From contig OZ255720.1 of the NCBI GenBank assembly GCA_965277295.1, forward strand, positions 215,376 to 279,375: DNA of 64,000 nucleotides, written 5' to 3'. Made by a program: the position numbers and the translations under genes. Below the pieces are notes generated by a model. The model made no database searches, was not told where the DNA came from, and saw only the letters and a program-made list of their open reading frames with translations. Origin of the DNA: Gilvibacter sp. (GTDB lineage Bacteria > Bacteroidota > Bacteroidia > Flavobacteriales > Flavobacteriaceae). This document shows positions 24,995-64,000 of this stretch, piece after piece. Within the stretch, counting starts at the first letter, position 1. Every line of letters begins with the position of its first letter.

Positions 24995-26389
24995 TTACTG
25001 TCCCCGATAAAAGATAATAGTACTTAACGTCTTTATTACAATACTTATATCTAAGAACAAGCTTCGACGCTTAATGTAGTACAAATCGTATTGTAATTTT
25101 TCTAAAGCATCTGCATGGGTAACACCGTATTTAGCATTCACTTGAGCCCATCCGGTAACTCCTGGTTTTACAATATGACGAATTTCGTAAAACGGAATAA
25201 TATCGGATAGTTCTTTTACAAATACAGGGCGCTCAGGTCGTGGCCCGATAACGCTCATTTCTCCACGAATAACATTTAAAAACTGTGGTACTTCGTCGAA
25301 TCTAGATTTTCGTAAAAATCTTCCAAATTTAGTGATGCGAACATCTTTGGCCTCGGCGTATTGTGCCCCGTGTTTTTCGGCATCTACTACCATGCTGCGC
25401 AGCTTAATAATTTTAAAAACCTTTCCATTTCGACCAACACGCTCTTGGGTATAAAAAATCGGGCCTCTGTTTCCTATTAGGTTTCCTATTAAAATAATGG
25501 GAGAAATTAGCACCCCAAAAATTAAACCGATTACAGAAAACAACAAGTCTAAAATGCGATGAAAAAACAAATACAATTTGTTTTGATTACTACGACTAAA
25601 AGGGAAATAGCGGTAAAAGTCTCTATCTACATGCTGCACCGGAACTCTTTTAGTTAGCTCTTCGTACACTTGAGTATATTCTCTAATCTGGAACCCAGAT
25701 TCTACTAAATCTAATAATTGATTATACATACCACGGCGAATACCCTTGGCAGAAGGTGACGACACGACAATCTCCGAAACAAAATAATCGGCAATAGTTT
25801 GCTTTAAATCTTTGCCATCGTATTCTTCTAAATTACCAATTTCGAGAGGTTTATAAGCTCTGGATTCTGTGTTTACAAATCCTATTACTTTATAGTTTGG
25901 ATCGGCTTTGTGCAACACAGATGCAATTAATTCTACTTCTGATCCCTCTCCTATTATAAGCACGCGTTTAAAAAAACGGGGGGTTGCAATAAGACTTATA
26001 TAGGCATACCGCCATAAAAATAGTGAAACGTTAATAGCGAGATAGAAATACACAATTTGTATCCTATTTTCGGGTAATTCCGGGCTAAAAAAGGGCGTTA
26101 ATAAATAAAACAGAACGGTAACAGAAGAGGTGAGTATTATATTCTTTACAACCACTTCGAAGTTACTGGCCTTTTGCAGGTCGTAGAGTTCAAAAATAGT
26201 AGCAAAAACCATTAAATAAACCCCTAACAAAATAGACCAAACCCAATGCGTCGAATTTATTTTAAAATAATCGAAGTCAAAAACCAATCCAACTCCATAC
26301 AAAACAGAAAGTACACAGAACACATCCAGAATGCGCAGCAGTACCTTTCGCTCAGAAATGTCGAAGTGAATATTAGATTTTTGATTCAT
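24995..26389 (-). CDS. Initiating polyprenyl phosphoglycosyltransferase (WcaJ/WbaP-like)
   Basis: N-terminal TMs, Rossmann-like domain, K.RSM, D.RIT..G..LRK.R.DE.PQ..NV..G.MS.IGPRPE, KPG.TGWAQV. Confidence 0.95.
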   Translation of the reverse strand: MNQKSNIHFDISERKVLLRILDVFCVLSVLYGVGLVFDFDYFKINSTHWVWSILLGVYLMVFATIFELYDLQKASNFEVVVKNIILTSSVTVLFYLLTPFFSPELPENRIQIVYFYLAINVSLFLWRYAYISLIATPRFFKRVLIIGEGSEVELIASVLHKADPNYKVIGFVNTESRAYKPLEIGNLEEYDGKDLKQTIADYFVSEIVVSSPSAKGIRRGMYNQLLDLVESGFQIREYTQVYEELTKRVPVQHVDRDFYRYFPFSRSNQNKLYLFFHRILDLLFSVIGLIFGVLISPIILIGNLIGNRGPIFYTQERVGRNGKVFKIIKLRSMVVDAEKHGAQYAEAKDVRITKFGRFLRKSRFDEVPQFLNVIRGEMSVIGPRPERPVFVKELSDIIPFYEIRHIVKPGVTGWAQVNAKYGVTHADALEKLQYDLYYIKRRSLFLDISIVIKTLSTIIFYRGQ

Positions 26390-26423
26390 GTTCAGGGGCT
26401 GAATGTGGAATAAAAATAAGAAT

Positions 26424-27437
26424 CTATTTCAAAACAGCCTCCCACAATGGAAGAACCTTTAACCAATCAAAGCTATTTGCCTTTGCCTGGGCGTTTTTAC
26501 ACAATGTATTTGCCATAGTTGAATCTGTAAGTAATTTCGCAATAGCTTGTGCCATAGCTTTTGGATTATTGTTCGCCACCAAGATACCATCTTTATTGTT
26601 GTTAATTAAATAAGGCATTCCGCCCACATTGGTAGACACAATAGGTAATCCTAGAGCCATTGCTTCGATTACACTTAAAGGTGTGTTATCAAAATTGGCC
26701 GTATTTATAAAAATAGCGTAATCGGCTGCCAAAGTCGTCCATTCTTCTCTGGTTAATTTTCCTTTAAATTGTATATCTACATCACTAATTCTTGCCAATT
26801 CCCGACATGCTTTTAGGCTTGAATCAACTTCTGGACCTGCCATACACAAACTTACATTAGGTACAATTTTACTTAATTCGATTGCTGTATGTACTGCCAT
26901 TAACGGATTATAGATAGACACAAACGAACGTACCCACAGCAAGTTTGGTTGCAATTTAGTGCGCTCTTTAAATTTAAATTGTTCTAGGCTAATCGCATTA
27001 GGAATACAGGCTATATTACTAAAACCGGCCTTGTTAAATTGTTCTTGCAAATATGCAGAGGGGCTAATGTTTATTTTTGAACCATTAAAAAAAGACTTCG
27101 ACAGTCTTGGGCTTTTTTTAAGTCTATTGGGTAAGTTACCTCCGTGCAAGATAGGAATGTAATCGAGCTTAAGTTTTCTGCACAACCAACCCACTGCAAT
27201 TGCGTAATAAAAATTTTGTGTACTATAGGTATCTATTAAAACATAGTCGAGCGCTTTACGCTCACTCCATACCGTTTTAAGCATGTCTAAGATTCGTGCA
27301 ACTTTATTGGTTTTTCCAGACGCCAATGTAAGGCTGTATCCAGTTTGGGAAAGCTTTTTCGCCAAGGCTTGCATATAAGTAGGATTGGTATCCTTACGCC
27401 TTAAATTGTTTCCTATGTAAACTAGGTTTTTTTTCAT
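26424..27437 (-). CDS. GT4 glycosyltransferase
   Basis: DNTPLSVIEAMALGLP..STNVGG. Confidence 0.9.
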   Translation of the reverse strand: MKKNLVYIGNNLRRKDTNPTYMQALAKKLSQTGYSLTLASGKTNKVARILDMLKTVWSERKALDYVLIDTYSTQNFYYAIAVGWLCRKLKLDYIPILHGGNLPNRLKKSPRLSKSFFNGSKINISPSAYLQEQFNKAGFSNIACIPNAISLEQFKFKERTKLQPNLLWVRSFVSIYNPLMAVHTAIELSKIVPNVSLCMAGPEVDSSLKACRELARISDVDIQFKGKLTREEWTTLAADYAIFINTANFDNTPLSVIEAMALGLPIVSTNVGGMPYLINNNKDGILVANNNPKAMAQAIAKLLTDSTMANTLCKNAQAKANSFDWLKVLPLWEAVLK

Positions 27438-28761
27438 TTATAACAAATAAAAGGCACAAGCCGTAAATAAATGCAGGTGCGGCCAAGCGCATTGATGAAT
27501 GGTTTATGGTTAAAAACCAAAAGGCAAACAAGGCCATCAAATACGGGTTATGTCGTTGCCTAAGCCAATAAAATAACGGAGTAAAAAACAATAGTATTAA
27601 AGCCGAAAGTCCCAAAATACCGTGTTCAGATAGCAAACGGCTTACTTCGTTATGGGTTGCCGCCAAAGTGCCTGTGCGTTCGTACCTAAATTCCTTAATC
27701 TTACCCACGCCAATACCAGTAACTGGTGCCTCGTAAAAGGCTTCGAGTTCTCCCGAAATTAATTCAGATCTACCCGTTGTAATATCTTGTTTTAAACGTC
27801 CGGCAGCATCCCTATTACTGTAGCGTTTATCTATTAATCCCGTGGTTTGTATACTGGTAAATCCCCAAGTAAGCACAAGCCCCACAACTACAATTAATAT
27901 TTTAGGAAACAGGCGGGCCTTCATCCTAAAACTAGAGGTCCAATATAAAAATAGAATAAAAGTTATAGCACAAATAGCCGCCGTAAGTACTCCTCCACGC
28001 GAGAAGGTTACGATTGCCCGATAGCTCATAAAAAATAATAAGACCAAATCGATTATATTAATAAACCTACTGCTTATAGTAAACAGTCTAGTAATTAATA
28101 TAAACATGCCTAAACCTAAAATAGTGGCTACTTGATTAGGGCCAAAGCCTCCTGAGGTTCTAAAGTTAGATTCGGTTCCGTTTAAGGCATCTTTTATATC
28201 TGGAGTGTACAAATACAAAAACACCATGGTGGTTACTATAGGTAATAAAATTGCCAACAAAATATGTTGTAATTGAGTTCTTGTAACGCGTCTATGGTAC
28301 ATATATATAGCAGCAATCCCCAAGCAAAAAGGGCCGCTTAAATTAAAGATTACCGCCGTTCTAAAGTTGGTTTCGTAGTTTAGATTTATTGCCGAAAAGA
28401 TGATTCCTGGCACCAGAGCAAACAAATATCCCCAAAATGGGATAGATTTTAGTGAAGTACCGCGATAGACCATACCAAGCAGCAAGAAGAATATTACGGC
28501 ATACTTACCTGTTTCGTAAAAAAGCACACCTCCAGTCATTCTATAGAACACCTCAGCCCCCGTAAAATAGGCTGCCGCAATTAGAACTTCGTTATTTTTA
28601 TTACCCTTGGCCAGTACATATACTAAAAAGATTCCCAAGCTTGCCAAAAGTATAAGGGTAGAACTAGGTCTAAATAAATACACACTAAAAGCAATAGCCA
28701 CGTGCAACAAAATTAATTGTACGTAGGTAACTTTTTTAATTGGTTTTAGAACCTGCCTCAT
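27394..28761 (-). CDS. O-antigen ligase/polymerase-family membrane protein (WaaL-like)
   Basis: About 12 TMs; T.SRGG, GIG.G, THN...LL.E.GI.G (PF04932-type) motifs. Confidence 0.8.
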   Translation of the reverse strand: MRQVLKPIKKVTYVQLILLHVAIAFSVYLFRPSSTLILLASLGIFLVYVLAKGNKNNEVLIAAAYFTGAEVFYRMTGGVLFYETGKYAVIFFLLLGMVYRGTSLKSIPFWGYLFALVPGIIFSAINLNYETNFRTAVIFNLSGPFCLGIAAIYMYHRRVTRTQLQHILLAILLPIVTTMVFLYLYTPDIKDALNGTESNFRTSGGFGPNQVATILGLGMFILITRLFTISSRFINIIDLVLLFFMSYRAIVTFSRGGVLTAAICAITFILFLYWTSSFRMKARLFPKILIVVVGLVLTWGFTSIQTTGLIDKRYSNRDAAGRLKQDITTGRSELISGELEAFYEAPVTGIGVGKIKEFRYERTGTLAATHNEVSRLLSEHGILGLSALILLFFTPLFYWLRQRHNPYLMALFAFWFLTINHSSMRLAAPAFIYGLCLLFVINEKKPSLHRKQFKA

Positions 28762-29815
28762 AGATGTTTAGCAATTTAGGAATAATACTTTGGATGCTAT
28801 ACTCTTGTTCTATGTGATTTTGATATGCATTAACCATTTTTTTACGCACCTCTGCATTGTTTAGATAATAGGTTATAGCTTTTGTAATCGCCTTGGGTTC
28901 GTTAGCCGGAATTACTACCCCATTAGGGCCAATTACTTGTGAACATTGTCCTACATCTGTCGTAATAACAGCCAAACCAGCCATACCGTATTCTAGCAGT
29001 GCCATTGGCAGTCCCTCTGAATTTGAAGACAACACCCCGATATCGCATTGTAATAATATACCATAAACGTCTTGGATTGGTCCGTGTAAGGTAATCGCCG
29101 CACCTAGGTTTAAGGCTTCAATTCTACTTATAACCGATTTATAATAAGCGTCTTCCCAATACATGCCAACTAAATGCAGATGCAATTCTTTATCCTGAGC
29201 ATAACTGGCGGCAAAACCACTAAGTAAATTTAAGTGATCTTTTTGTTCCCTAAAATTTGCCAAATGGACAATACGTTTGCCTTTAACTCCTGCAAGTATG
29301 GGAAACGTTCTGTTTGATTCTGGTTTAGGAATGGCGTTTTTTAAAAATACTACCCGTTGGCATAGTAAAGTGGTGTTGGCCCAAGTTTGTAAAAGTTCGT
29401 TTACGGTTATAATTGTGCTAAACTTTTTTGAACACCATTTTAGCATTTTAACAGGACGAAGCTTCAACATTTCGCTTTTCCCGTAGTGATCATGCCAAAT
29501 TAATTTGCAGTTTGGCAAATAAAACATAGCCATTCTAGCAATAAAATAAGACGAACTATGGGCGTGAATATGACTAACAGCATTGCTTTTACAAAATCTA
29601 ACAAGGCGTTTAATTGCTTTAAAATCAAGTGTTTTTGTACGTTCTAAAAACAAATATGTTACTCGAGTGTCCAACTTTTGTTTTAATAAACCTTCTGCTC
29701 GGGTTGTGCATAAAAAAGAGTCAGCATTTGTATCTAGTAACGCATTGGCATAACTCACAGCTACGGTTTCGGCTCCTCCGGGGTTTAATGAATCTATTAG
29801 CTGCAGTACCTTCAT
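28736..29815 (-). CDS. GT4 glycosyltransferase
   Basis: LIDSL.PGGAE, SSNSEGLPMALLEY. Confidence 0.9.
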   Translation of the reverse strand: MKVLQLIDSLNPGGAETVAVSYANALLDTNADSFLCTTRAEGLLKQKLDTRVTYLFLERTKTLDFKAIKRLVRFCKSNAVSHIHAHSSSYFIARMAMFYLPNCKLIWHDHYGKSEMLKLRPVKMLKWCSKKFSTIITVNELLQTWANTTLLCQRVVFLKNAIPKPESNRTFPILAGVKGKRIVHLANFREQKDHLNLLSGFAASYAQDKELHLHLVGMYWEDAYYKSVISRIEALNLGAAITLHGPIQDVYGILLQCDIGVLSSNSEGLPMALLEYGMAGLAVITTDVGQCSQVIGPNGVVIPANEPKAITKAITYYLNNAEVRKKMVNAYQNHIEQEYSIQSIIPKLLNIYEAGSKTN

Positions 29816-30921
29816 AGCTCCAACATGTTTTGTATACTCTGGTCGAATTTATCTAAGGTATACCCCCTTGACCATTCGGCTGCATTTTCCGACATTTGCT
29901 GTAAAGTATCAGGTTGCTTTAATGCGGCATCAAGTTGTTGAGCATCTGTAGATAAATCAAGTAAAAGACCACGTTTACCACGATCTAGCATCCAAGGCAC
30001 GCAGGAAATTAAGGTCGCCATTGGAATACAGCCCCAAAACATGGCTTCTGCAACAGCCTTTGGCCAACCTTCTGATTTAGAAGGTAATATTAAAAAGTGC
30101 GCCTTTTTATAAGCTTCTTTTACCACAGCTTTAGGTTGGTTGCCCAAAAGGCGTACATAGCTAGCACAGTGCTGTTGTGATAGCTGCATTTCTAGCGCTT
30201 CTCGCATAACCCCATCGCCGTAAAAGTCAAGTTTAATAGCTATTCCCATCTCGTGTAATTGCTTTATTAAATTCAATGCATAAAGCGGTCTTTTTCCGGG
30301 ACTTAAACTGCCAACAAATAAAACCGATATGGCTGCGGAATAATCTCGTTTTACTATAGGTTCAATTTCACTCTTGGTATAAGAGGCAGTAAAAAATGGG
30401 ACTATGTTTCTAGACTGATTAGGCCAATCTCCATAAACCAACACCTTTATTTTTCTAGTTAAAAAACTATTACTTAGCAACCATTTTTGAAACTTATAAC
30501 TAATTGGTTGTCTTGCATTTGGATCCCAGTTTCCCGCATATTTAGCCGTTTTTGGAATCCATGGAAACAAAATTTGCATATAACATGCCAGTAAACTGGT
30601 ATTACCTGGACAGCGCACATGAATATGATCTGCTTTTGCCATAGCGACAAGTAACTTTATTTTAGTCACCGCAGTCCCCCAAATAGATTTTACGAACCCT
30701 ATCGGAGAGCCAAAATGCAATGGGGGTACACTAATTACGTGTAAGTCTTGTCTTTTAAATGCAGCTGTTAATAGCGGTTTGTTATATATAGTTGGCGCTA
30801 AAATGGTAATTTTTTTGGGCTGCTCAAACCAAAGATCTAATTCGGCAACCATAGGTGCGTAGGCACAAATTTCCTGATTAGAAGTTAAAATAGGCGCTGT
30901 GCTTACTACTAGTAGATTCAT
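29812..30921 (-). CDS. GT4 glycosyltransferase
   Basis: PSKSEGWPKAVAEAM. Confidence 0.9.
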   Translation of the reverse strand: MNLLVVSTAPILTSNQEICAYAPMVAELDLWFEQPKKITILAPTIYNKPLLTAAFKRQDLHVISVPPLHFGSPIGFVKSIWGTAVTKIKLLVAMAKADHIHVRCPGNTSLLACYMQILFPWIPKTAKYAGNWDPNARQPISYKFQKWLLSNSFLTRKIKVLVYGDWPNQSRNIVPFFTASYTKSEIEPIVKRDYSAAISVLFVGSLSPGKRPLYALNLIKQLHEMGIAIKLDFYGDGVMREALEMQLSQQHCASYVRLLGNQPKAVVKEAYKKAHFLILPSKSEGWPKAVAEAMFWGCIPMATLISCVPWMLDRGKRGLLLDLSTDAQQLDAALKQPDTLQQMSENAAEWSRGYTLDKFDQSIQNMLEL

Positions 30922-31469
30922 AATATATAATCGCTAGAATCGTTATCGCTTACTTTTTGTGCAGGAACACCTACTACAGTTGTTCCTGGAGCTACATTAT
31001 TAGTAACTAAAGAGCAGGCACCTATTACAGCATTATCGCCTATAGTTATTTTACCAGCCACAACAGCATTTGCGCCCAAATAAACACGATCTCCAATTAC
31101 AGGTACTCCACGGGAGTCACCACGACCGCTAACGCCAATTGTAACTCCTTGCGAAATATTACAATCCGAACCAATTACTGCATTGGCATTCACTATTATC
31201 CCTCCAAAGTGCCCAATATAAAATCCAGGACCAATTTGTGCAGCATACGGTAAAGAAATTCCAGTAAAAACTTCTATCCATTTTTGCCCAAATAGGCCAA
31301 AAAATAATAGAATGCGCTTAAAAATACGTGGAATTTTAGCATTGTAAATTGCATTATTTGTTCGGTAGACACTTAAGGCCCACAAACCTTGTTGGGTAAA
31401 CAGCAGTATTAAACTACTCTTTTTAGAATAGCGTTTGTACTTTTTAATATCGGCCTTAAAATGCCCCAT
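30918..31469 (-). CDS. Hexapeptide-repeat acetyltransferase (WcaB/CysE-like, probably glycan O-acetyltransferase)
   Basis: IG.G.YIGH.GGI, P.IGD.V..GANA, IG..SLV, VG.PA. Confidence 0.85.
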   Translation of the reverse strand: MGHFKADIKKYKRYSKKSSLILLFTQQGLWALSVYRTNNAIYNAKIPRIFKRILLFFGLFGQKWIEVFTGISLPYAAQIGPGFYIGHFGGIIVNANAVIGSDCNISQGVTIGVSGRGDSRGVPVIGDRVYLGANAVVAGKITIGDNAVIGACSLVTNNVAPGTTVVGVPAQKVSDNDSSDYIL

Positions 31470-31477
31470 AAACTTAA

Positions 31478-32614
31478 TTAAAGTGACCTGTAAAAATCTA
31501 AATTTTGTGCAACAATCTTATCTAAATCATACTTTGCAATAACATCTTTTCTAGCCCGCTTTCCCATTGCATTTGCCTCTTGCTCGTTTTCTATTATCCA
31601 TAGTATTTGTTTTGCGATATCTTCTGGATTGTACACATCGCATAGCAATCCATTATCGCCGTGAGTTATTGTTTCTGGACCTGGTCCGTATTTAGAAAAC
31701 ACAACAGGGCGTTCTAGTAGCATGGCTTCTAAAGATACTAAACCTTGAGTTTCCATATGCGACGGAAACACACAAACCGCAGCCTGAGCGTAAAGCATAT
31801 CTAATTCTGCCCGAGGAACAACTCCCTTAAAACTAACCTGAGTAAAATACTGGGCATCCAAATCTTTTTTAATTTGTTCTATATAAGAACGCCCATCGGG
31901 ATAAAACCAGTCCCTTCCATAAATATCTAAACATACCTCTGGATATTTTTGGCGAACAATTTTAAATCCTTGAATTAATTGACGCACTCCCTTTTTCTCG
32001 CAGACCGTACCAGCAAATAATATGCTATTTGCATCTACGTGAACCTTTGGTACTGTCACCCCTGTATTCATGGGATAGTTAATAATAGTAAGTTTAGCAT
32101 TACCATAACTTAAATACTTAGCCGTATGCTCCTTAACGTAATTAGTAACTGCTATAAAGCCGTCTGCTTTTTTAAACGATCGCTTTTCTAAGAACCCCTT
32201 ACGCCAATTAATTCCGCGTTGCTCTGCTTCCGAAAAAAAATGATGTCCGCCATGCAAACGAATAACTCGTTTTGCAGTGTGAGATCCAGATAATAAAGCC
32301 AAGCCAAGTTCAGAAGCTTCTATTATGTTAATTGGATGTTCTTTATTAAGTTGCTTTAATTTTTTATTGATTTGCCTGGCATTATGCATAAAATTTGGCA
32401 GTTTACTTTTATTTTTTGCCAACCTATACAAGCCAACGCCTTGATCTTCTAAAACCTGTTCTTGCAAATCGGTACCCGGCCCAACCACGCTTACTTTATG
32501 GCCACGACTAACCAATGCTCGCCCAAAGGTTTGAATAAAAGTTCCTACGCCACCCGATGCCCAAACTGGGTATTCCGGAGATAAAAAAACAATATGTAAT
32601 GCGCTATTACTCAT
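31478..32614 (-). CDS. GT4 glycosyltransferase
   Basis: GGVGT N-terminus; FPSHMETQGLVSLEAM. Confidence 0.9.
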   Translation of the reverse strand: MSNSALHIVFLSPEYPVWASGGVGTFIQTFGRALVSRGHKVSVVGPGTDLQEQVLEDQGVGLYRLAKNKSKLPNFMHNARQINKKLKQLNKEHPINIIEASELGLALLSGSHTAKRVIRLHGGHHFFSEAEQRGINWRKGFLEKRSFKKADGFIAVTNYVKEHTAKYLSYGNAKLTIINYPMNTGVTVPKVHVDANSILFAGTVCEKKGVRQLIQGFKIVRQKYPEVCLDIYGRDWFYPDGRSYIEQIKKDLDAQYFTQVSFKGVVPRAELDMLYAQAAVCVFPSHMETQGLVSLEAMLLERPVVFSKYGPGPETITHGDNGLLCDVYNPEDIAKQILWIIENEQEANAMGKRARKDVIAKYDLDKIVAQNLDFYRSL

Positions 32615-35110: not shown

Positions 35111-35120
35111 AGTATAGGCC

Positions 35121-38736: not shown

Positions 38737-38740
38737 CACT

Positions 38741-54613: not shown

Positions 54614-55312
54614 TTAACTAAGTTTATATTGATTTAATAGCTCTAGAACTTCTTCTCTAGATTTAATCATTAAAAGATGAATGATTGAAAGTTCGTAATC
54701 ATTTTTATTACTTACACTCTGGAATTGAGTTTCAATAAATTTAAGTTTAATCCCGTTCTCTAAAAAATAACCTTTATCATATAATTTTTTTCCTCCAATT
54801 GGATTAACGTATACATTGGAACCATTTTTTTTGGTAATTGCAATTAACCTATCAGCAGATCTCAAGTCATGCGTGTCTGAAAAATGCTCTGAACTTTTCA
54901 AGAATTCTGTTTCTAATTCCAAATATGATGTGATTGAACTAATACTGTTTATCGCCAAGTCCGCGATACTCTTATTTGATTTATAGAAAACAGACTGTGT
55001 TAGATCGAAAACTTCCTCAAAAAACGGTGCCTTGGCGTAGTTTTGTTGTAAAGTAGTAAAAAACTGATTAACCCATTTATCGCTTTCTTTGATATAAACA
55101 TCCTTAATTAATTTATTCTGAGAAACATGCTGTAAGGGAATTGAAAATAAATACTCATTACCATTAATCAATAATTTATTTCGATTTATCCATCCACGTT
55201 TTATGAAATTTACATCATCATAAAACACAAATACATCTACTTTACTTATTAACTGGAAATACCCTATGTACGGAAAGAGGTAAGGTTGCATTATTGCAAT
55301 AGAGTTATTCAT
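54614..55312 (-). CDS. WbqC family protein
   Basis: AIMQPY.FPYIGYFQLI..VD.FV.YDDV, W.NRN, Y.KAPFF, Y.NP.GG, LSI. Confidence 0.92.
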   Translation of the reverse strand: MNNSIAIMQPYLFPYIGYFQLISKVDVFVFYDDVNFIKRGWINRNKLLINGNEYLFSIPLQHVSQNKLIKDVYIKESDKWVNQFFTTLQQNYAKAPFFEEVFDLTQSVFYKSNKSIADLAINSISSITSYLELETEFLKSSEHFSDTHDLRSADRLIAITKKNGSNVYVNPIGGKKLYDKGYFLENGIKLKFIETQFQSVSNKNDYELSIIHLLMIKSREEVLELLNQYKLS

Positions 55313-56423: not shown

Positions 56424-57479
56424 TCATTCAAAGTTCAGATTCGATTTTAACAGGAATTCCTCAACAAGTTTTTTTGTTAAAAGTTGAGCTCCTTTGTCAT
56501 TTAAATGACCAACATCAAAAGAATATTCCAGTTCATAGAACTCTGGATATTTCACACTACTGGAAAGATCAATGATATGAGCACTTGGAATTTGATCTGC
56601 TAGTTGATATAAGCCCTTGCTTCCATATCGAGGTAGAATTAAAAAAATCAAGTGAATACCTCGCTGCTTAGAGGTACCGATTAATTTATTTAATTCACTT
56701 AGTAAATCTGCATCATAATACTCACCAGAATTTCTTAAAAACATTGAGCGATTCGCTCTTGCTTTTAAAAGAGTAGAGTCTTGAATAACGGAATTATGGT
56801 TATTGATTAAATTTCTTCTTATAGTACTATCCTCAACTTTTTCTAATTCATCTTCTAGTGAATAAAACCCATCCAACCTAGGACCTAAATACACGCTGTT
56901 TAATTGGTATTTTCCAAGTAGTTTACTTCCAAAATAATCTTTTCTAAATATTTTATCGAAATACGATTTGGAATAACCCGAAATCCCGTATAATTTTTGC
57001 TCCAAACTTAGACTATCTCTATTCAAATAAGACTTCGTTATTAATTTCATATCACTTAGGTTTAACCAATAATACGAGCGCTTTTGATGCAATAATTTGG
57101 GAGCGGTATTCGTAATTGTAGTTAATTCAAAAAAAGCATATTTTACATCTTTACTTAAGTCCGATTTAAGATAATTTCGGTACAAATATTGGGATTGGGG
57201 GCTAAAAGTGGCTGGAGCACCCAAATTAAAAGAGGAAATTTTTTTTTGAGTAATCATGTTTACTTCACGGTCAAATACCTCTGGAGTTATTTGCCTGTAA
57301 ACCCGGCTAGAACCGAAAAACAATACGTTTGGTTGTAATTCATTGTTACCCTGCAAAAATTCAACCTTCGAGGCAAACCACTGATTACCCCAATAATATG
57401 GGGCAAAACTATTCATAACTTGTTTGATAAAAACTACAAGAAAGAACAGTACAGAAACTCGCTTTAGGAGCTTTAACAT
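56424..57479 (-). CDS. Membrane-anchored SGNH-like (DltD/AlgJ-type) protein
   Basis: N-terminal TM; FGSSR nucleophile block; C-terminal FD.GHLN.KGA (DxxH). Confidence 0.6.
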   Translation of the reverse strand: MLKLLKRVSVLFFLVVFIKQVMNSFAPYYWGNQWFASKVEFLQGNNELQPNVLFFGSSRVYRQITPEVFDREVNMITQKKISSFNLGAPATFSPQSQYLYRNYLKSDLSKDVKYAFFELTTITNTAPKLLHQKRSYYWLNLSDMKLITKSYLNRDSLSLEQKLYGISGYSKSYFDKIFRKDYFGSKLLGKYQLNSVYLGPRLDGFYSLEDELEKVEDSTIRRNLINNHNSVIQDSTLLKARANRSMFLRNSGEYYDADLLSELNKLIGTSKQRGIHLIFLILPRYGSKGLYQLADQIPSAHIIDLSSSVKYPEFYELEYSFDVGHLNDKGAQLLTKKLVEEFLLKSNLNFE

Positions 57480-57550: not shown

Positions 57551-58186
57551 CTAAATATCACTAGATCTATTTTCCCAGGGAAAGTTATCGTATTTGGGTT
57601 CTTTATTTAAAAACTCACAAAGTCTTTTGTATGCTCCTTCTTTAGCAACATTTAAAACTAGTAAATTATTCTTGTTCTTAAAGTAATCTAATACCGATGC
57701 ATTATGGGTGTTGTAGTAGTTTCGCAATTTACGTTCGTTGTAGGGATCTTCGGTGCGTTGAATTCCAAAAACTAACTCACGTACTTGTGCCACATATCCT
57801 TTATAACGATAGGTAGCGTTATCTAAATCCTCCCAGGTTGGCTTGTTCTGGTTTTTAGAAAACAACTTGGTGTGAAAATTAACCAATGAGTTGTACCAAA
57901 CCGTGTCGTTATCTCTAATTGTTAGAATAAATTTGGCGTTGCTAAAAGCTTGGTCTAAAGCAATAAAAGTATGTTGAAAGCAAAACGGTGCATCTTGAAA
58001 GGCGTCGGCGGTTTTGCAGAATTTTATAATTGGCTTAAAATTCCTAGAGGCGTAATCATTAATAAACAACTCACCTTGCTTTTGGCTCCCTAATTTATAA
58101 CCAAAATCGTTAAGGGCTTTTTCTATCGAGGTTGTTCCGGTTTTACCAGACCCAACACAGAATATTTTTTCTTTCTTACCCAACAT
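57551..58186 (-). CDS. Sulfotransferase (Sulfotransfer_4-like)
   Basis: CVG.GKTGTTS, D.P, F.NAKFILT.R....W..S, HN..V.DYF, LC.FL. Confidence 0.8.
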   Translation of the reverse strand: MLGKKEKIFCVGSGKTGTTSIEKALNDFGYKLGSQKQGELFINDYASRNFKPIIKFCKTADAFQDAPFCFQHTFIALDQAFSNAKFILTIRDNDTVWYNSLVNFHTKLFSKNQNKPTWEDLDNATYRYKGYVAQVRELVFGIQRTEDPYNERKLRNYYNTHNASVLDYFKNKNNLLVLNVAKEGAYKRLCEFLNKEPKYDNFPWENRSSDI

Positions 58187-58192: not shown

Positions 58193-59398
58193 TCAATTTA
58201 AATCGGTTAACGTTGTTTCTAGGTAAAAGGGCGGCCAAATTTCTTCTTCGTGTATTACTTGAAAATTTAATACTCCGTTTACTCTTAATAAGGGTTCTCT
58301 AGAATTGGGTTTTACCACACTAATATTAACCGAATAAATACCCTTAGACAACATTAATTGTTCGTGTTCCATACAAAACTGAATCTTATTATCTTTAATT
58401 TTAAGGCCATCTTGAATTTTATTAGGTTCTAACATAGCCACCGGACGTTGTTCTTTGTCATAAATTGAAATATGGAAAGAAGGAATATCTTGCTCCTTTT
58501 TTAATTCAAATACTAACCGTAATTTAAATTTACCCTTCCATTGTATTTGTGGCTGTTCGTTTTGGCTATTAACCCCTAACAATTCTGCTCTTGTTAAAGC
58601 AATTGTATTGTCATCGAAAATTATATTCTGTTCGTTATTCGTAAATCGCTGATAATACAAATCAATGGCTTTTGATACATTAGTTCCTTGAAATGCATCC
58701 GCTCCTCTTTCCATTAATAGAACATGCGTACAAATCCTAGAAACCATAGGCATGGAATGCGACACAAACACAATGGCGGTATTGGGTAAGATGTTATCTA
58801 TGGTTTTAAAACACTTTAAAACAAAACCCAAATCGCCAACAGCCAATACTTCGTCTATTATTAAAATGTCGGGCTCCATTTGTGCAGCAACAGCAAAGCC
58901 CAAGCGCACCTTCATCCCCGAGCTATAATGTTGTACTGGCATATCTATAAACTCTTCGAGTTCTGCAAATTCAATAATCTGAGTAAGCTTAGTGTCTATT
59001 TCTTCACGAGTAAAGCCTAGTACAGCACCATTATTATAAATATTTTCGCGCCCTGTGAGGATATTATTAAATCCTGCACCTAGTTCTATTAAGGCTCCCA
59101 CACGCCCTTTCATGGTAATACTGCCAACATCTGGACGTATTAAACCATTAAGCATTTTTAAAAGTGTAGATTTTCCCGCACCGTTATGCCCTATTAACCC
59201 TAGGCATTCACCACGACGCAATTCAAAATTTATATCCTTTACGGCCCAGAATTCTTTAGGACGTAACATATCTGACTTATTATTGCCAAAAACATTGGCA
59301 AATAAATCCTGTAATCCGTATTTAAGTCCCGTTTTTAGGTCTTTACAAAACTTCTTAGAGAGGTTTTCTACTTTTATTAAAACTTCCTGCTCTTCCAT
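58193..59398 (-). CDS. wzt: Polysaccharide ABC transporter ATPase with C-terminal carbohydrate-binding extension
   Basis: GHNGAGKS, ELGAGF, YSSGM..RLGF, DEVLAVGD, SH; about 150-aa Wzt_C-like tail. Confidence 0.93.
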   Translation of the reverse strand: MEEQEVLIKVENLSKKFCKDLKTGLKYGLQDLFANVFGNNKSDMLRPKEFWAVKDINFELRRGECLGLIGHNGAGKSTLLKMLNGLIRPDVGSITMKGRVGALIELGAGFNNILTGRENIYNNGAVLGFTREEIDTKLTQIIEFAELEEFIDMPVQHYSSGMKVRLGFAVAAQMEPDILIIDEVLAVGDLGFVLKCFKTIDNILPNTAIVFVSHSMPMVSRICTHVLLMERGADAFQGTNVSKAIDLYYQRFTNNEQNIIFDDNTIALTRAELLGVNSQNEQPQIQWKGKFKLRLVFELKKEQDIPSFHISIYDKEQRPVAMLEPNKIQDGLKIKDNKIQFCMEHEQLMLSKGIYSVNISVVKPNSREPLLRVNGVLNFQVIHEEEIWPPFYLETTLTDLN

Positions 59399-59400: not shown

Positions 59401-60246
59401 TTATGCGCTACTACGTTCAACAATTATTGGAATAGAAACTCTATAAAATACTAAAGCAATTAAAAATATTGGAATACACGATAGCAAAACAATAAGATAA
59501 TACTGTAAGTGTTCGGTTGGATTGCCAAGTATGGTGCCTCTAGCCATAAGTATTAAAGGACTAAATGGATTGTATTCCATAATGGTCTTCATTATACCTT
59601 CGCTTGGAACAACATATACCACAGGAGTTATATACATTAAAAAGCGCAATGCAGTCATAATTAGCTTAGATACGTCATTATATAAAAGCCCAATGGGCGT
59701 AAGAATTAATCCCAACGAAAACCCAAAGAAAACGGCTCCCAACATAATAATTGGGAACAGCCATATACTGTGATGATAATCTACACCAAAAATAAAAAGT
59801 AAGATTATTAATAATAGTATTTTGGGTATGGCGTTAAATAATAATTTGTAAATACCAGAAAGTAACAAAGCTTCTTTAGGAAAATTAATCTTAGAGATTA
59901 TACTTTTAGCACTACTGGTACTGGTTTGGGGCGAATTAATTGCCCCTACTATTATCGACCAGATTAATGTCCCCGAAAACGCATAGACAGGATACGGAAT
60001 TCCAGTATCTGTTAACTGAATTGTTCCTGTCGCTTGTAAAAACACCCAGACTAAGGCTGTAGTAACCGGAGTTATAAATGCCCAAACAATGCCCAAATAA
60101 GATTGCCGGTATTGCGCCTTGATGTCGCGAATAGCAATTTGCTTAGCCAAAAACGTACTTCCAGCAAGGTCGCGCAAGCTCGCTCCAAGCACCTTTAAAA
60201 TACTGGTATTACCGCGATTAGAATAAACTTTGGTTTGGTTGTTCAT
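59401..60246 (-). CDS. wzm: Polysaccharide ABC transporter permease
   Basis: RDIK.QYRQS.LG..WA, K.NFP.E, Y.TP..Y, YNP. Confidence 0.93.
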   Translation of the reverse strand: MNNQTKVYSNRGNTSILKVLGASLRDLAGSTFLAKQIAIRDIKAQYRQSYLGIVWAFITPVTTALVWVFLQATGTIQLTDTGIPYPVYAFSGTLIWSIIVGAINSPQTSTSSAKSIISKINFPKEALLLSGIYKLLFNAIPKILLLIILLFIFGVDYHHSIWLFPIIMLGAVFFGFSLGLILTPIGLLYNDVSKLIMTALRFLMYITPVVYVVPSEGIMKTIMEYNPFSPLILMARGTILGNPTEHLQYYLIVLLSCIPIFLIALVFYRVSIPIIVERSSA

Positions 60247-60391: not shown

Positions 60392-61270
60392 TTACACATT
60401 ATTATTAACCAGTTGTTTACAAGCGTTTATTAGCGACGCCGATATGGAATAGTCCATTTTTCTGGCAAACAATGCCGTAGATTGTTTTATGGCTATAAAA
60501 TCAGTAGTATCTAGAAATGCAGGCAAACTACCATGGCGTTCCTGCCAAACAATAAAACGCTTATTGTCTTGAATCATGCTTCCTGCTAAAGTAGAATTCA
60601 TTAAAATAGTCTGAAAATAAAACTCTTCACTGCAAAAACTGTGTTTTAATCTTCTAAACAAGGCCGGGGTGTTAATATAAAAATTTACAACTTCCTGTAC
60701 AGCAGCACGATGCAAACTCCAATAGGTAGAACCTCCGTAAAGTGGTGGTAAATTTTTACTATATGCCCGTTTAAAACCTAATTTTTTTTGAATTGATAAT
60801 GCTTTTTGAATCCAACGCATAGACGATTTTGCATTCAACAAGTCGTAAAAATTATAGTAATCTATTCTGTCCATTCCCCCATTGTTCCAGCAACTAGCTG
60901 GCATGGTAAAATATTCTAAATAGCTCTTTCCATTTAGTTTAGAGAAGTGCTCTATAAAATAATTGTTAGTCTTAATGGGCATATCCTGACCAGTAATCAT
61001 ATGAAAGTATTCATATTCTTTGCTTTTCAGCGCCGTTTTACATAACAGTAAAATGCTTTTTAAGTGATTTCTCCCACCCCAGTTTACGTTATATTGCTGC
61101 CCAATAAAAACAATGTTTTTAACCTTAGCTAATTTTAGCTTTAACTGGGGCGATAAGGTTGATTTTTTGTCGATATGAATAAACAAACCAAACCTTGAAT
61201 CAAAACACGCCGCCAAGTCTAGCAGCTGTTCCAAATCCTTATAGGCGGTTATTAATATGGCGTGTTTCAT
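60392..61270 (-). CDS. GT14 (core-2/I-branching beta-1,6-GlcNAc transferase family) glycosyltransferase
   Basis: HAILI.AYK, IHID.K, V.WGG, TGQD.P, GS..WSL, EE..FQT, W, D, FARK. Confidence 0.88.
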   Translation of the reverse strand: MKHAILITAYKDLEQLLDLAACFDSRFGLFIHIDKKSTLSPQLKLKLAKVKNIVFIGQQYNVNWGGRNHLKSILLLCKTALKSKEYEYFHMITGQDMPIKTNNYFIEHFSKLNGKSYLEYFTMPASCWNNGGMDRIDYYNFYDLLNAKSSMRWIQKALSIQKKLGFKRAYSKNLPPLYGGSTYWSLHRAAVQEVVNFYINTPALFRRLKHSFCSEEFYFQTILMNSTLAGSMIQDNKRFIVWQERHGSLPAFLDTTDFIAIKQSTALFARKMDYSISASLINACKQLVNNNV

Positions 61271-61274
61271 AATA

Positions 61275-62042
61275 CTAATTAGCAAATTTGCGCTTTAAAC
61301 GCCCCCATTTATAAGCAAGGTAGGGATACTTTAGTCTAAAATTAAGCTTTCCCTGTTTGCCAAACAAAAGGGCTAAATCGGCAAAAGGAGCTATAGTCCA
61401 TTTACGTTTTTCTACAAAATTGTAATCTAAATACGCTAAATCTTTTTTGTAAAACCAAGCAACCATTGACTTTCTTTTTCTAGTGTAGAAAAATGAATAA
61501 TGCGGCAGCTTTTTGTTGTTTACATTGCTGTGCTGGCTAAAAAAATTAGCGGGTAAATTAAGGTCTTTTATAACCTTAGTAAATCCCTGTTGAATGTCTT
61601 CCATTCTAATAATACAATCGTAATCTATTGGGTTGCCGTCTAAGTGCAAATAGTCGTATTGCAGGGTTAAATGATCTCCCATATAGTCGCTATTAAGGGC
61701 ATTTAACCGCGCTTTAAAAGGGCCTGCCTTTTGTAGAAAATTAGAAAACGAACCGTAAACTCCAGTATTGAGCATAACCCAAGGATAATCTGAATAGGCT
61801 CTGGCAAACGGATTTCTTACAATAATAAATTTATAATACGAATCCCACTGGGGTTTTGTAACTAAACCAGATGCTAGCAGCTGTTTTGGCGTTGCGTGCT
61901 GCATGTGCAATTTAAACTCGCTGTTCCAACCATAGCCCATTACAGGATCCAATTGATTGGTCATGCCGAATGCTTCTTCTACAGTTGTACCTGCACATTT
62001 AGAAATATGTATAAAAATGCATTTATGTTTATGACTAACCAT
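61275..62042 (-). CDS. Sulfotransferase family 2 (CHST/HNK-1ST-like)
   Basis: FIHI.KCAGTT, VRNP..R..S.Y, H...Q, YD..IR.E, Y..D...L.Y. Confidence 0.85.
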   Translation of the reverse strand: MVSHKHKCIFIHISKCAGTTVEEAFGMTNQLDPVMGYGWNSEFKLHMQHATPKQLLASGLVTKPQWDSYYKFIIVRNPFARAYSDYPWVMLNTGVYGSFSNFLQKAGPFKARLNALNSDYMGDHLTLQYDYLHLDGNPIDYDCIIRMEDIQQGFTKVIKDLNLPANFFSQHSNVNNKKLPHYSFFYTRKRKSMVAWFYKKDLAYLDYNFVEKRKWTIAPFADLALLFGKQGKLNFRLKYPYLAYKWGRLKRKFAN

Positions 62043-62090
62043 AATCGGGTTCTAAATACTAAACTCGTTCCAAAAAATACGACAGCGAGT

Positions 62091-63074
62091 CTAGGAATTC
62101 ACAAAATGCTGCCACGTAATTGCCAGGCCTTGTTCTACACTAAATGTAGGATTATAGTCCAACAATTGTTGGGCCTTGCCAATATTTGCCAGCGAATCTT
62201 TTACATCGCCCTTGCGAGTTGCTGTAAACTCAGGTTCTAACGTAGCCCCCGAAGTTTCTTTAAGCGCATTCCATAAATCCAACACGCTAATGCGCTCCCC
62301 ACAAGCTACATTAAACACTTGATTATTAGCTTGCTCTGGAGCAAAAAATGCTCGAACGTTGGCTTGCACTGCATTTTCTACAAAAGTAAAATCGCGGGTT
62401 TGTGAGCCATTACCGTGAATAGTAGGTGCTTGCTTGGTTTTAATCGCTTCCATAAACAAAGGAATTACCGCTGCATACGCCCCATTTGGGCTTTGCTTTG
62501 GCCCAAAAACATTAAAATAGCGCAGGCCTATTGTTTTGGTTCCATAGGTTTTAAAAAAGACGTCTGCATATATTTCGTTAACAAGTTTTGTCACGGCATA
62601 AGGCGATAATGGCTTGCCAATTTGATCTTCTACTTTTGGCAATATTTTACTATCGCCATAGGTAGAGCTAGAGGCAGCATACACCATTTTACGAACACTA
62701 CTTGCATTGTTTTGTGCAACCAACATATTTAAAAATCCAGAAACGTTTACTTGGTTGGACGTAATTGGGTTATTTATAGATCGTGGAACAGACCCCAAAG
62801 CCGCTTGGTGGGACACAAAATCGATGCCTACCATGGCCTTGTTGCAGGTTTCTAAATCGCGAATATCCCCTTCTATAAATTCAAAATTAGGATGCTCTAG
62901 AAAGGGAGTAATATTCTCTTTATACCCATTAGAAAGGTTATCCAGAACACGCACATGCTTAGCGTTGTACTTTAATAAATAGGCAACTAAATTCGAACCT
63001 ATAAATCCGGCGCCACCAGTTACTAAAAAACTATACCTACTTAATGGCTCTGTATGATACGTTGTTGTGAACAT
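62091..63074 (-). CDS. UDP-GlcNAc(A) C4-epimerase (WbpP/TviC-like SDR)
   Basis: GGAGFIG, HQAALGSVPRS, YAASSS.YGD, SPYAVTK, YFNVFG..Q.PNGAYAAVIP. Confidence 0.9.
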   Translation of the reverse strand: MFTTTYHTEPLSRYSFLVTGGAGFIGSNLVAYLLKYNAKHVRVLDNLSNGYKENITPFLEHPNFEFIEGDIRDLETCNKAMVGIDFVSHQAALGSVPRSINNPITSNQVNVSGFLNMLVAQNNASSVRKMVYAASSSTYGDSKILPKVEDQIGKPLSPYAVTKLVNEIYADVFFKTYGTKTIGLRYFNVFGPKQSPNGAYAAVIPLFMEAIKTKQAPTIHGNGSQTRDFTFVENAVQANVRAFFAPEQANNQVFNVACGERISVLDLWNALKETSGATLEPEFTATRKGDVKDSLANIGKAQQLLDYNPTFSVEQGLAITWQHFVNS

Positions 63075-64000
63075 TATAATCTGCCGTCTACTTGATTATG
63101 GGGTAAAAACGATTTAACATCGTATACAATCCCTTGGTCGGTTGTTAATCCTGCTATATCTAAATCTTTAAATGCGCTATGGGCTACCGCCAAAATAACA
63201 GTATCGTATTTTTTATTTATACTTTTTAAGTCCGTAAATACGTCACGATTAAATTCTTGATGCACCTCTTGTTTACTTACCCAAGGGTCGTAAATATCTA
63301 CGTTTATATGGTATTTTTCTAGCTCCTGGATAACATCTATAACTCGTGTATTCCTAATATCTGGGCAATTCTCTTTAAAAGTAACTCCTAAAATTAAGGC
63401 ATTGGCATCTTTAATTTTGGCCTCTTTTGCTATCATTATTCTAACTACTTCTTGAGCCACATAAGCGCCCATGCCATCGTTCATTCTTCTACCTGCCAAT
63501 ATAATTTCTGGGTCGTAACCCTCGGTAATTGCCTTTTGAGCTAAATAATAAGGATCTACTCCTATACAATGCCCTCCAACCAAACCAGGAGTAAATCGAA
63601 TAAAATTCCACTTTGTAGCAGCTGCCTCTAATACTGCGGCTGTATCTATATCTAGAATTCTAAAAATCTTAGACAGTTCGTTTACAAAAGCAATATTAAT
63701 ATCGCGTTGTGAATTCTCTATAACCTTGGCAGCCTCGGCCACTTTTATTGATGGTGCCCTATGCGTACCTGCCAATATTACAGATGCGTACACTTGGTCA
63801 ATGTGTTTAGCGGCCTCTTGGGTAGAACCCGAGGTTACCTTTAAAATATTGGTAACGGTATGTTTTTTATCTCCTGGGTTTATACGTTCGGGAGAATAGC
63901 CTACATAAAAATCTTTATTAAAGGTTAATCCCGATTCCTTTTCTAGAATGGGAACACATACCTCTTCTGTAGCACCAGGGTATACGGTAGATTCGTAAAC
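63074..64000 (-). CDS. UDP-N-acetylhexosamine 6-dehydrogenase (WbpO/TviB-like), 5' end outside window
   Basis: Frame open to 64000: YESTVYPG, YSPER.NPGD, KVIEN.QRD, PGLVGGHCI.VDP, G.TFKEN.PD.RN. Confidence 0.93.
   Translation of the reverse strand, partial: VYESTVYPGATEEVCVPILEKESGLTFNKDFYVGYSPERINPGDKKHTVTNILKVTSGSTQEAAKHIDQVYASVILAGTHRAPSIKVAEAAKVIENSQRDINIAFVNELSKIFRILDIDTAAVLEAAATKWNFIRFTPGLVGGHCIGVDPYYLAQKAITEGYDPEIILAGRRMNDGMGAYVAQEVVRIMIAKEAKIKDANALILGVTFKENCPDIRNTRVIDVIQELEKYHINVDIYDPWVSKQEVHQEFNRDVFTDLKSINKKYDTVILAVAHSAFKDLDIAGLTTDQGIVYDVKSFLPHNQVDGRL

Follow-up and report, generated by a model that had tools for sequence, protein, structure and literature searches.

What kind of surface glycan is encoded by a gene cluster that combines sulfotransferases, sialic acid genes and an ATP-binding cassette (ABC) exporter, and by what route would it be made? 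We address this question for a locus of Gilvibacter sp. lying in a window of 64,000 nucleotides (contig OZ255720.1, positions 215,376 to 279,375 of the forward strand; coordinates below are those of the window, and genes are on the minus strand unless stated). In our judgement there is a little better than an even chance that it forms one integrated, serotype-like surface-polysaccharide super-locus working by the ABC-transporter-dependent route. Clusters of this type are widespread in the Flavobacteriaceae yet uncharacterised, and the present one is a version of them, not a one-off. To an initial annotation of the window we add a family-wide pattern of sulfotransferase genes beside wzt, co-variation of the Wzt binding domain with the neighbouring genes, and a small family of sulfotransferases that no Pfam model covers.

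The initial annotation described a dense, near-continuous minus-strand locus at 24995-64000, and the open reading frame (ORF) list bears this out: 39 of the 40 ORFs are on the minus strand, and neighbouring minus-strand ORFs overlap or sit at most 145 bp apart. The upper boundary must be moved. Sequence read beyond the window continues through Wzc (window-equivalent 64387-66849, upstream of the TviB-like gene) to Wza (window-equivalent 66852-67709, the head of the locus), and the whole unit spans about 42.7 kb and 42 genes from Wza to the initiating polyprenyl-phosphate hexose-1-phosphate transferase (PGT). Searches against Pfam, NCBIfam and PDB sequences, with AlphaFold models and Foldseek for fold calls, found every listed part in its place: four sulfotransferases, neuABC, a GDP-mannose 3,5-epimerase (GME), a GT14 enzyme, Wzm/Wzt, a WaaL-type protein and about 19 glycosyltransferases (GTs). 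The GT-like genes do number 19 (17 clear Pfam matches, one weak GT8-like protein and one GT-B-fold orphan), but the orphan, at 32620-33993, is broken by an in-frame TAG. The locus is bordered by a divergent ABC-F gene at the Wza end and by lnb at the PGT end, where an Lnb-type gene (23814-24989; Lnb_N and 5TMH_Lnb domains) adjoins it. An Lnb-type gene is found at this end also in Gilvibacter sediminis and Flavobacterium sp. 1; in G160, a complete genome of the same genus, lnb was assigned by position alone, the flanking ORF having no annotation. Together, the Lnb-type and ABC-F genes mark a conserved insertion site.

In order of transcription, the locus begins with genes for Wza, Wzc, TviB-like, TviC/WbpP-like, Sulfotransfer_2, GT14, Wzm and Wzt proteins, followed by Sulfotransfer_4 (ST4), a protein of unknown function, an aminotransferase, a WbqC-like protein, an acetyltransferase, a GH130-like protein and the fourth sulfotransferase of 349 aa. 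Three GT2 genes, the weak GT8-like gene, a methyltransferase and GT4, GT2 and GT4 genes lead up to the plus-strand Sulfotransfer_1/_3 gene. Beyond it are GT2, GT32, GT4, the GME-type epimerase, three GT2, NeuA, NeuB, NeuC and the GT-B orphan, and the last genes are GT4, acetyltransferase, two GT4, the Wzy_C protein, GT4 and the WbaP-type PGT. The plus-strand gene and a 112-bp divergent gap part the locus into 5' and 3' minus-strand blocks.

A single ABC-dependent assembly line is favoured because the sole primer lies at the 3' end and the sole flippase, Wzm/Wzt, in the 5' half. The Wzm permease (59401-60246) matches Wzm of A. aeolicus (PDB 6m96, E 3e-13). Wzt (58193-59398) combines an ATPase with a C-terminal carbohydrate-binding domain (Pfam ABC_tran; Wzt_C 30.7 bits, borderline against a cut-off of 30.4), and matches A. 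aeolicus Wzt (PDB 8dku, E 2e-58) through residue 381, the binding domain included. The two genes are 2 bp apart, and PDB matches to TarG/TarH were also obtained. No Wzx was found in the locus; the two Wzx genes of the genome are at 1.457 and 2.383 Mb of contig C1. The PGT, the last gene (24995-26389; WbaP/EPS type), scores 203 bits to Pfam Bac_transf, passes NCBIfam TIGR03025 (333 bits, cut-off 295.55) and is 85-87% identical in same-genus relatives. The genome holds three Bac_transf PGTs, one per polysaccharide locus. No WecA was found in the genome, where the single PF00953 match (C1:2.2076 Mb) is probably MraY, judging from its position. The Wzy_C/O-antigen-ligase-type membrane protein (27394-28761; Pfam Wzy_C 59 bits; no match in a PDB sequence search) has the motif H[NSQ]x9Gxx[GTY] at residue 370, which we take to be a ligase signature. 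It is 78-81% identical within the genus, above most GTs, and 44-81% identical across genera. In a pathway with cytoplasmic polymerisation, as predicted here, its expected role is that of a ligase, and it is probably WaaL-like. Stand-alone terminator candidates are the ST4 gene after wzt and the methyltransferase.

From the observed gene identities, synteny, conservation and co-variation we infer a scheme whose chemistry, sequence of steps and end acceptor are all predictions. Undecaprenyl phosphate would be primed by the WbaP-type PGT, and a conserved inner part would be built by the 3' genes (four to five GT4s, the acetyltransferase and the GT-B gene). Cytoplasmic extension by the variable central GT2, GT4, GT14 and GT32 enzymes would follow, with predicted donors UDP-N-acetylgalactosaminuronic acid (UDP-GalNAcA), GDP-L-galactose (GDP-L-Gal) or GDP-L-gulose (GDP-L-Gul), an N-acyl 4-amino-4,6-dideoxyhexose (DegT/WbqC/VioB-like) and possibly CMP-N-acetylneuraminic acid (CMP-Neu5Ac). 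Before export, the chain would be decorated by the methyltransferase and by four soluble sulfotransferases dependent on 3'-phosphoadenosine 5'-phosphosulfate (PAPS), which a CysQ-CysC-CysD-CysN cassette would provide. The finished chain would then be recognised by the C-terminal binding domain of Wzt, flipped by Wzm/Wzt, and either ligated to lipid A-core by the Wzy_C protein or carried in a capsular form by Wza/Wzc. The gene content thus predicts the polyanionic glycan of the initial annotation (uronic acid, sulfate and possibly Neu5Ac, synthesised in the cytoplasm and exported by Wzm/Wzt). The further claim, of a pathway matching no described model, does not hold: the parts fit the canonical ABC scheme (PGT, GTs, modifiers, Wzt with a binding domain, ligase), and a sulfated, ABC-exported capsule locus is already known from Vibrio sp. 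KMM 8419 (PMC11641403).

A scan for Wzt with one genome per species returned 373 relatives, and gene content was compared on the best 80 loci. In these, which cover many Flavobacteriaceae genera, Wzt is 61-69% identical, and a layout of Wza, Wzc, (TviB, TviC), Wzm, Wzt, sulfotransferase, DegT, (WbqC, acetyltransferase and others), GT2 and variable GTs recurs. In Gilvibacter sediminis NBRC 101626, a single contig bears most of the locus with its gene order preserved (43-87% identity), including the GT14, the Sulfotransfer_2 gene, the GME, NeuABC, an intact 456-aa GT-B protein and the antisense sulfotransferase, and excluding ST4, the VioB-like acetyltransferase, the GH130-like gene and the 51966-53015 sulfotransferase. 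Synteny comparison confirmed the proposed recurrence of the downstream block in other Flavobacteriaceae, and the 3' block is present in 39% of sampled genera. Seventeen other genera have a close Wzt orthologue on the same contig as the GT-B gene, at a distance of 17-36 kb and with order and orientation unchanged. The suggestion that the novelty lies in the combination cannot be kept: most of the combination is present in the same order in G. sediminis (without two of the four sulfotransferases), and the Wza..Wzm/Wzt..GT-B..PGT architecture occurs in at least 17 other genera. Genome tallies are threshold-dependent, as G160 shows, and the figure of 33 close Wzt orthologues in 201 genomes is an undercount that misses divergent Wzm/Wzt pairs such as that of G160.

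In G160 the locus is at the same site, with the flanks kept and the centre different. Wza, Wzc, TviB and TviC are 70-79% identical and the genes from GT-B through PGT 45-85%; in the centre, Wzm is 25% and Wzt 45% identical, the nonulosonate cassette is of the pseudaminic/legionaminic acid (Pse/Leg) type, and no sulfotransferase was detectable by BLAST. Pse/Leg-type cassettes occupy the neu position in relatives. Conserved flanks around a swapped centre are typical of O-antigen or capsule loci that vary by serotype. Over 50-58 kb of the window, GC content drops to 0.33, and the genes share 66-80% identity with a Mesoflavibacter locus, compared with 49-54% for the flank genes, a difference suggesting that cassettes have been exchanged between genera. 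A literature search returned no relevant paper on wzm/wzt, sulfotransferases or sulfated O-antigens in Flavobacteriaceae.

Small modifying enzymes predominate immediately downstream of wzt in the 80 related loci, with sulfotransferases recurring across the family. In 55 of 79 related loci a sulfotransferase is encoded at most two genes after wzt, and in 35 loci a homologue of the window sulfotransferases occupies this position. Homologues of ST4 lie at most three genes after wzt in 27 of the 80 loci, and DegT homologues lie downstream of wzt in 49. Among the 69 wzt neighbours that remained unclassified, Pfam recognised Sulfotransfer_1/_3 (21), Sulfotransfer_2 (5) and Stf0 (1) proteins, FkbM-type or class I methyltransferases (about 18) and pyruvyl transferases (5). 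Where the wzt neighbour is other than a sulfotransferase, it is often a small capping-type enzyme (methyltransferase or pyruvyl transferase).

Mean identity of Wzt across the loci is 78% in the ATPase domain and 41% in the C-terminal domain. For each domain tree (quick FastTree builds), the fewest changes explaining a neighbour trait were compared with 300 shuffles, ST4 and DegT being scored within three genes of wzt and any sulfotransferase within two. On the C-terminal tree, ST4 took 12 changes against a shuffle mean of 23.5, any sulfotransferase 11 against 21.5 and the DegT aminotransferase 16 against 25.8 (values reached by 0 of 300 shuffles in each case). On the ATPase tree the corresponding values were 23 against about 23.5 (random), 19 against 21.7 and 22 against 26.0. 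When only DegT-positive loci were considered, ST4 took 7 changes against 15.8 on the C-terminal tree (0/300) and 15 against 15.9 on the ATPase tree. Since the C-terminal tree, and not the ATPase tree, groups by the downstream cassette, the Wzt binding domain belongs with that variable cassette. Such co-variation is expected if the binding domain reads a structure made by the downstream genes, and it supports, without proving, a sulfate-containing cap. We tentatively propose, while thinking it doubtful, that a sulfate ester from the wzt-adjacent sulfotransferase is the non-reducing-end mark read by the Wzt binding domain in a large group of marine Flavobacteriaceae; the sulfate cap may sit on the 4-amino-4,6-dideoxyhexose from the adjacent aminotransferase. 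If so, sulfate would join methyl, methylphosphate and Kdo (3-deoxy-D-manno-oct-2-ulosonic acid) as a chemically new kind of cap that ends the chain and licenses its export, and the window locus would be a tractable example.

Of the four sulfotransferases, ST4 (57551-58186; Pfam 97 bits; motifs GKTGTT and RDNDTVWYNS) lies directly after wzt and is the candidate capping enzyme. The Sulfotransfer_2 protein (61275-62042; Pfam) has a copy in the same order in G. sediminis, at 58% identity. The only plus-strand gene of the locus (43571-44422) encodes a Sulfotransfer_3/_1 protein (Pfam; motifs MKAGTT and RNPVDRTYS). In the 43459-44426 region this gene is convergent with the upstream GT4 and divergent from the downstream GT2, a position kept in G. 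sediminis, and in Lacinutrix gracilariae an opposite-strand sulfotransferase likewise comes after the GT4 homologue. The 349-aa fourth sulfotransferase (51966-53015) found no match in Pfam, NCBIfam or a PDB sequence search and was assigned by fold and motifs. Its AlphaFold model has a predicted local distance difference test (pLDDT) score of 92, and a Foldseek search of PDB with it gave PAPS sulfotransferases at each of the top 29 ranks, led by 3rnl (E 3e-7). This family has 48 homologues among 5.8 billion proteins, none with a Pfam domain, and its invariant residues include P11, K12, R130 and S138. Members come from Flavobacteriaceae and also from Orenia, Fodinibius, Thiomicrorhabdus and Sulfuricurvum.

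The PAPS-binding motifs (5'-phosphosulfate binding, 5'-PSB, and 3'-phosphate binding, 3'-PB) are intact in all four sulfotransferases. On inspection, none of the four has an N-terminal hydrophobic stretch, so they should be cytoplasmic. The CysQ-CysC-CysD-CysN cassette is at C1:2.785-2.789 Mb, 2.5 Mb away (adenosine 5'-phosphosulfate kinase, 231 bits, with CysD-like, CysN-like and CysQ-like genes), and its presence elsewhere in the genome makes sulfation of the locus glycan plausible. Because further sulfotransferase paralogues accompany the cassette, adjoin the Wzx-type locus and lie past the Wza end, glycan sulfation looks like a general trait of the organism. We consider the predicted sulfation of the locus glycan likely. 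The cassette is part of a third polysaccharide locus (C1:2781815-2797909) with an 811-aa Wza-like protein carrying SLBB repeats, a GNVR/Wzz-like protein and two adjacent Sulfotransfer_2 genes; a small Bac_transf PGT is at C1:2807196. A second, Wzx-type polysaccharide locus (C1:1455636-1469565) contains Wzx, a Wzy_C protein with the ligase motif, a short-chain dehydrogenase/reductase (SDR) and a 450-aa Bac_transf PGT, and a Sulfotransfer_3-like paralogue lies beside it at 1.456 Mb. About 14 kb past the Wza end is a Sulfotransfer_2-like paralogue (window-equivalent 81737-82384) that shares 25% identity with the copy in the locus.

The locus glycan was also described as sialylated, and here the synthesis genes stand. 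NeuC (33983-35134), a hydrolysing UDP-GlcNAc 2-epimerase, scores 412 bits to TIGR03568 (cut-off 235.9). NeuB (35121-36164), of the N-acetylneuraminate synthase type, has Pfam NeuB and SAF domains, scores 389 bits to TIGR03569, just below the cut-off of 399.65, and matches N. meningitidis NeuB (1xuu) over its full length (439 bits, E 8.5e-131, 342 aligned residues). The NeuA-type CMP-nonulosonate synthetase (36161-36835) has a Pfam CTP_transf_3 match of 93 bits and passed no NCBIfam equivalog. Legionaminic or pseudaminic acid in place of Neu5Ac was rejected for this genome: NeuB scores 132 bits to a PseI structure against 439 to N. meningitidis NeuB, and no dehydratase/aminotransferase set adjoins the neu genes. 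The transfer step is where the claim weakens. No locus gene matches a known sialyltransferase family (GT38, GT42, GT52 and GT80 types), and the only candidate by context, the GT-B-fold orphan beside neuC (32620-33993), has an in-frame TAG at 33811-33813 (codon 61). Sialylation is the weakest part of the first reading because this GT-B copy is truncated.

Homologues of the GT-B protein number more than 1500, with lengths near 456 aa, and its gene is present in 78 of 201 sampled family genomes; the other 77 copies are open for at least 456 aa, against 396 here, and the public gene call is a 343-aa fragment. The glycine-rich N-terminal PDGVGI segment, with family-invariant residues, lies upstream of the TAG. 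An exact-pattern scan of metagenome contigs around the TAG codon gave no match. Fifty-three of the 78 copies are within 20 kb of a NeuB-family gene, 21 of them near a Neu5Ac-type NeuB orthologue (72-80% identity) and 32 near a Pse/Leg-type paralogue (about 30% identity). In seven further genomes the NeuB-family gene is elsewhere or on another contig, and 18 have none. This strong association (odds ratio 9.9, p 7e-13, not corrected for phylogeny) makes the protein a reasonable candidate nonulosonate transferase. It was rejected as a recognisable sialyltransferase, its predicted fold being generic GT-B (epimerases, TagF, MshA) with no known sialyltransferase in the top 50. The in-frame TAG in this conserved neighbour of neuC makes it doubtful that the strain sialylates its glycan, and Neu5Ac addition may have been lost through the premature stop.

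Several points weigh against a single ABC-dependent polymer. Nineteen GTs are many for such a polymer, which usually needs few; Wza and Wzc (the latter a polysaccharide co-polymerase of the PCP-2a type) normally go with Wzy-dependent capsules and not with Wzm/Wzt; and neither a coiled-coil terminator of the WbdD/WbbB kind nor any multidomain terminator was found in the locus, where only Wzc exceeds 470 aa. The Wzy_C family takes in WaaL ligases, polymerases and PglL-type O-oligosaccharyltransferases alike, and a second Wzy_C gene elsewhere in the genome shares the ligase motif. Physical linkage could by itself also produce the co-variation seen for the Wzt binding domain. Divided as they are by the plus-strand sulfotransferase, the two blocks of the locus could be separate units. 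On that account the island would hold two glycans: the 5' block (Wza to the GT4 at 44424) would make an ABC-exported sulfated polymer, and the 3' block (the GT2 at 43458 to the PGT) a separate, conserved nonulosonate oligosaccharide or capsule unit, its product flipped by a Wzx from elsewhere, with the Wzy_C protein as polymerase or ligase and possibly Wza/Wzc for export. The dividing gene and its 112-bp divergent gap, the number of GTs, the Wza/Wzc pair typical of Wzy-dependent routes and the two Wzx genes elsewhere in the genome all suit this account, as does the separate occurrence of the modules: of the 33 genomes encoding a close Wzt orthologue, 12 have no GT-B gene, and in many genomes that do have GT-B a close Wzt orthologue is missing. 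However, G160, scored as having no close Wzt, carries a divergent Wzm/Wzt in the same position, so the separability of the modules is partly a threshold artefact. The 5' block moreover has no initiating transferase of its own in a genome without WecA, the 3' block has no flippase, and where both modules are on one contig their order and orientation are constant. We think two separate glycans unlikely, and retain the single ABC-dependent assembly line.

The end of the pathway leaves room for another acceptor. The Wzy_C protein might be a PglL-like O-oligosaccharyltransferase passing the lipid-linked glycan to proteins and not to lipid A; the domain is common to WaaL and PglL-type enzymes, and the protein is well conserved across genera (44-81%). 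To our knowledge, the oligosaccharyltransferase and ligase of Bacteroidota O-glycosylation have yet to be identified. The binding domain of Wzt and the number of GTs, about 19, nevertheless point to a polymer, and the 3' block occurs in only 39% of sampled genera while O-glycosylation is phylum-wide. Known O-glycan loci of the phylum, the LFG type, begin with metG and wzx, continue with variable GTs and end in two conserved GTs (PMC12871550); metG, wzx and the two terminal GTs are all missing here, and an LFG-type locus was rejected with neither metG nor wzx in or beside the cluster. We regard transfer to protein as very improbable. Compatible with either pathway model is a locus that is partly inactive in this strain, in which the nonsense codon of the GT-B gene blocks Neu5Ac addition or completion of the inner glycan, leaving a glycan without sialic acid or truncated. 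The TAG at codon 61, the 396-aa frame against at least 456 aa in 77 other genomes, the PDGVGI segment cut off upstream of the stop and the 343-aa public call all favour such a loss, although the TAG could be an assembly error and the other locus genes are all intact. The role of the GT-B protein is itself a candidate one, given its generic fold and the 18 genomes that have it with no NeuB-family gene. Partial inactivity is a possibility we take seriously, yet we lean against it, and the ABC-dependent super-locus remains the reading we prefer for the whole.

The first of the remaining genes concern predicted precursors. The TviB/WbpO-like UDP-GlcNAc 6-dehydrogenase (63074-64363, cut by the window end; NCBIfam NF011729, 555 bits, below cut-off) and the TviC/WbpP-like C4 epimerase (62091-63074; NF011728, 297 bits, below cut-off) are predicted to supply UDP-GalNAcA. 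The GME-type SDR (39524-40498) matches PDB 2c59 (E 9e-93, 314 bits, 312 residues), with the next family at 92 bits; the motifs SSAC, YGWEK (YGxEK), EKAPAA and GVRGRNSD align, and it is 85% identical in G. sediminis. It would give GDP-L-galactose or GDP-L-gulose. Downstream of ST4, a protein of unknown function with a hydrophobic N-terminus (56424-57479; no Pfam or NCBIfam match) is followed by the DegT/DesI/VioA-type 4-aminotransferase (55309-56370; Pfam; TIGR04427, 264 bits, below cut-off), the WbqC-like protein (54614-55312; Pfam) and the NeuD/PglB/VioB-family N-acetyltransferase (53952-54611; Pfam; TIGR03570, 142 bits, below cut-off). The GH130/GH32-like beta-propeller protein (53015-53950) has weak Pfam GH32N/GH130 matches and a below-cut-off NCBIfam match to beta-1,2-mannobiose phosphorylase (54 bits), and may be a phosphorylase-type glycosyl-transfer enzyme. 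Its gene travels with those for the acetyltransferase, WbqC and the fourth sulfotransferase in seven related loci.

The GT14 'Branch' enzyme (60392-61285; PF02485, 81.9 bits, cut-off 23.4) is 64% identical in G. sediminis. Pfam identified GT2 genes at 49385-50284, 50303-51091 and 51093-51959, the last with homologues in 57 of the 80 related wzt loci. The GT-A-like, weakly GT8 protein (48477-49385; Pfam Glyco_transf_8, E 0.003) and the class I S-adenosylmethionine-dependent methyltransferase (47773-48474; Pfam Methyltransf_23/_11) are each 73% identical in G. sediminis. Pfam likewise placed a GT4 at 46653-47759, a GT2 at 45638-46648 and a GT4 at 44424-45641, and, as the first genes of the 3' block, a GT2 at 42487-43458, a GT32 at 41729-42487 and a GT4 at 40509-41672. 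Three further GT2 genes (38741-39511, 37861-38739 and, weakly, 36848-37864; Pfam Glycos_transf_2) precede neuA. Beyond the GT-B gene are GT4 genes matching Pfam Glycos_transf_1 at 31478-32614 (110 bits), 29812-30921, 28736-29815 and 26424-27437, and a hexapeptide-repeat, CysE/WcaB-like O-acetyltransferase (30918-31469; Pfam Hexapep; NCBIfam matches all below cut-off) that is 74-75% conserved in the genus. An Rfam search of the window found no RNA family, and promoter scans (sigma-70 and the -33/-7 Bacteroidetes pattern) gave nothing above chance; a simple TAnnTTTG match, weak evidence, lies 5' of wza and of gene 56424-57479.

Marine Flavobacteriaceae are familiar chiefly for breaking down the sulfated polysaccharides of algae. 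The present comparison demonstrates that many of them carry, at one conserved site, predicted machinery for sulfated acidic surface glycans of their own, with a sulfotransferase adjoining the exporter gene in about 70% of related loci and the sugar-binding domain of the exporter varying with it. If the predicted chemistry is true, cultured Gilvibacter, Winogradskyella, Aequorivita and similar bacteria would offer a genetically accessible model of bacterial glycan sulfation, in which it could be tested whether sulfate licenses export in ABC-transporter-dependent assembly. The loci would also be a source of new carbohydrate sulfotransferases, including the 48-protein family without a Pfam model, and would bear on recognition by phages and grazers and on how these bacteria avoid their own sulfatases.

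Among known systems, the Synechocystis xss cluster makes the sulfated exopolysaccharide synechan (PMC8205485). The likeness lies in sulfotransferases, many GTs and Wza/Wzc-type export components in one locus. Synechan assembly is presumably of the Wzx/Wzy type, whereas the locus here has Wzm/Wzt and no Wzx. The NeuCBA sialic acid pathways of the N. meningitidis and E. coli K1 capsules are matched by NeuB, strongly similar to that of N. meningitidis, by the NeuC equivalog and by the CMP-sugar synthetase, but here no sialyltransferase is recognised, NeuA has no esterase domain, the exporter is Wzm/Wzt and not KpsMT, and relatives carry a Pse/Leg-type cassette at the neu position. Also comparable are the sulfated capsule cluster of Vibrio sp. 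KMM 8419, with its ABC transporter, cysNDC and sulfotransferases (PMC11641403), and that of Cobetia marina KMM 1449. As in Vibrio, several sulfotransferases lie among GT genes, and the genome has dedicated genes for PAPS; for the Vibrio cluster, too, export by an ABC transporter and a route dependent on undecaprenyl phosphate have been proposed. The Vibrio strain is a gammaproteobacterium whose cysNDC genes are inside the cluster, while the cassette here is in another locus 2.5 Mb off; its locus has no nonulosonate genes, GME or GT14, and the structure of its polymer has been solved (sulfated Rha/Glc), whereas the glycan here is predicted from genes. For ABC-dependent O-antigens, the known caps are methyl, methylphosphate and Kdo, and terminators have coiled-coil rulers (PMC11231755). 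Gilvibacter shares with E. coli O9a, K. pneumoniae O3/O4/O7/O12 and A. aeolicus a Wzm and a Wzt with a carbohydrate-binding domain. It shares with the E. coli O9a/Klebsiella scheme a predicted cytoplasmic assembly on a polyprenyl carrier, small modifying enzymes beside the transporter, a Wzy_C protein that is probably of ligase type, with no Wzx in the locus, and a binding domain in the serotype-variable region. Unlike in that scheme, the primer is WbaP-type and not WecA, there is no ruler or terminator, the GTs are far more numerous, Wza/Wzc stand at the head of the locus, and the enzyme next to wzt is a sulfotransferase.

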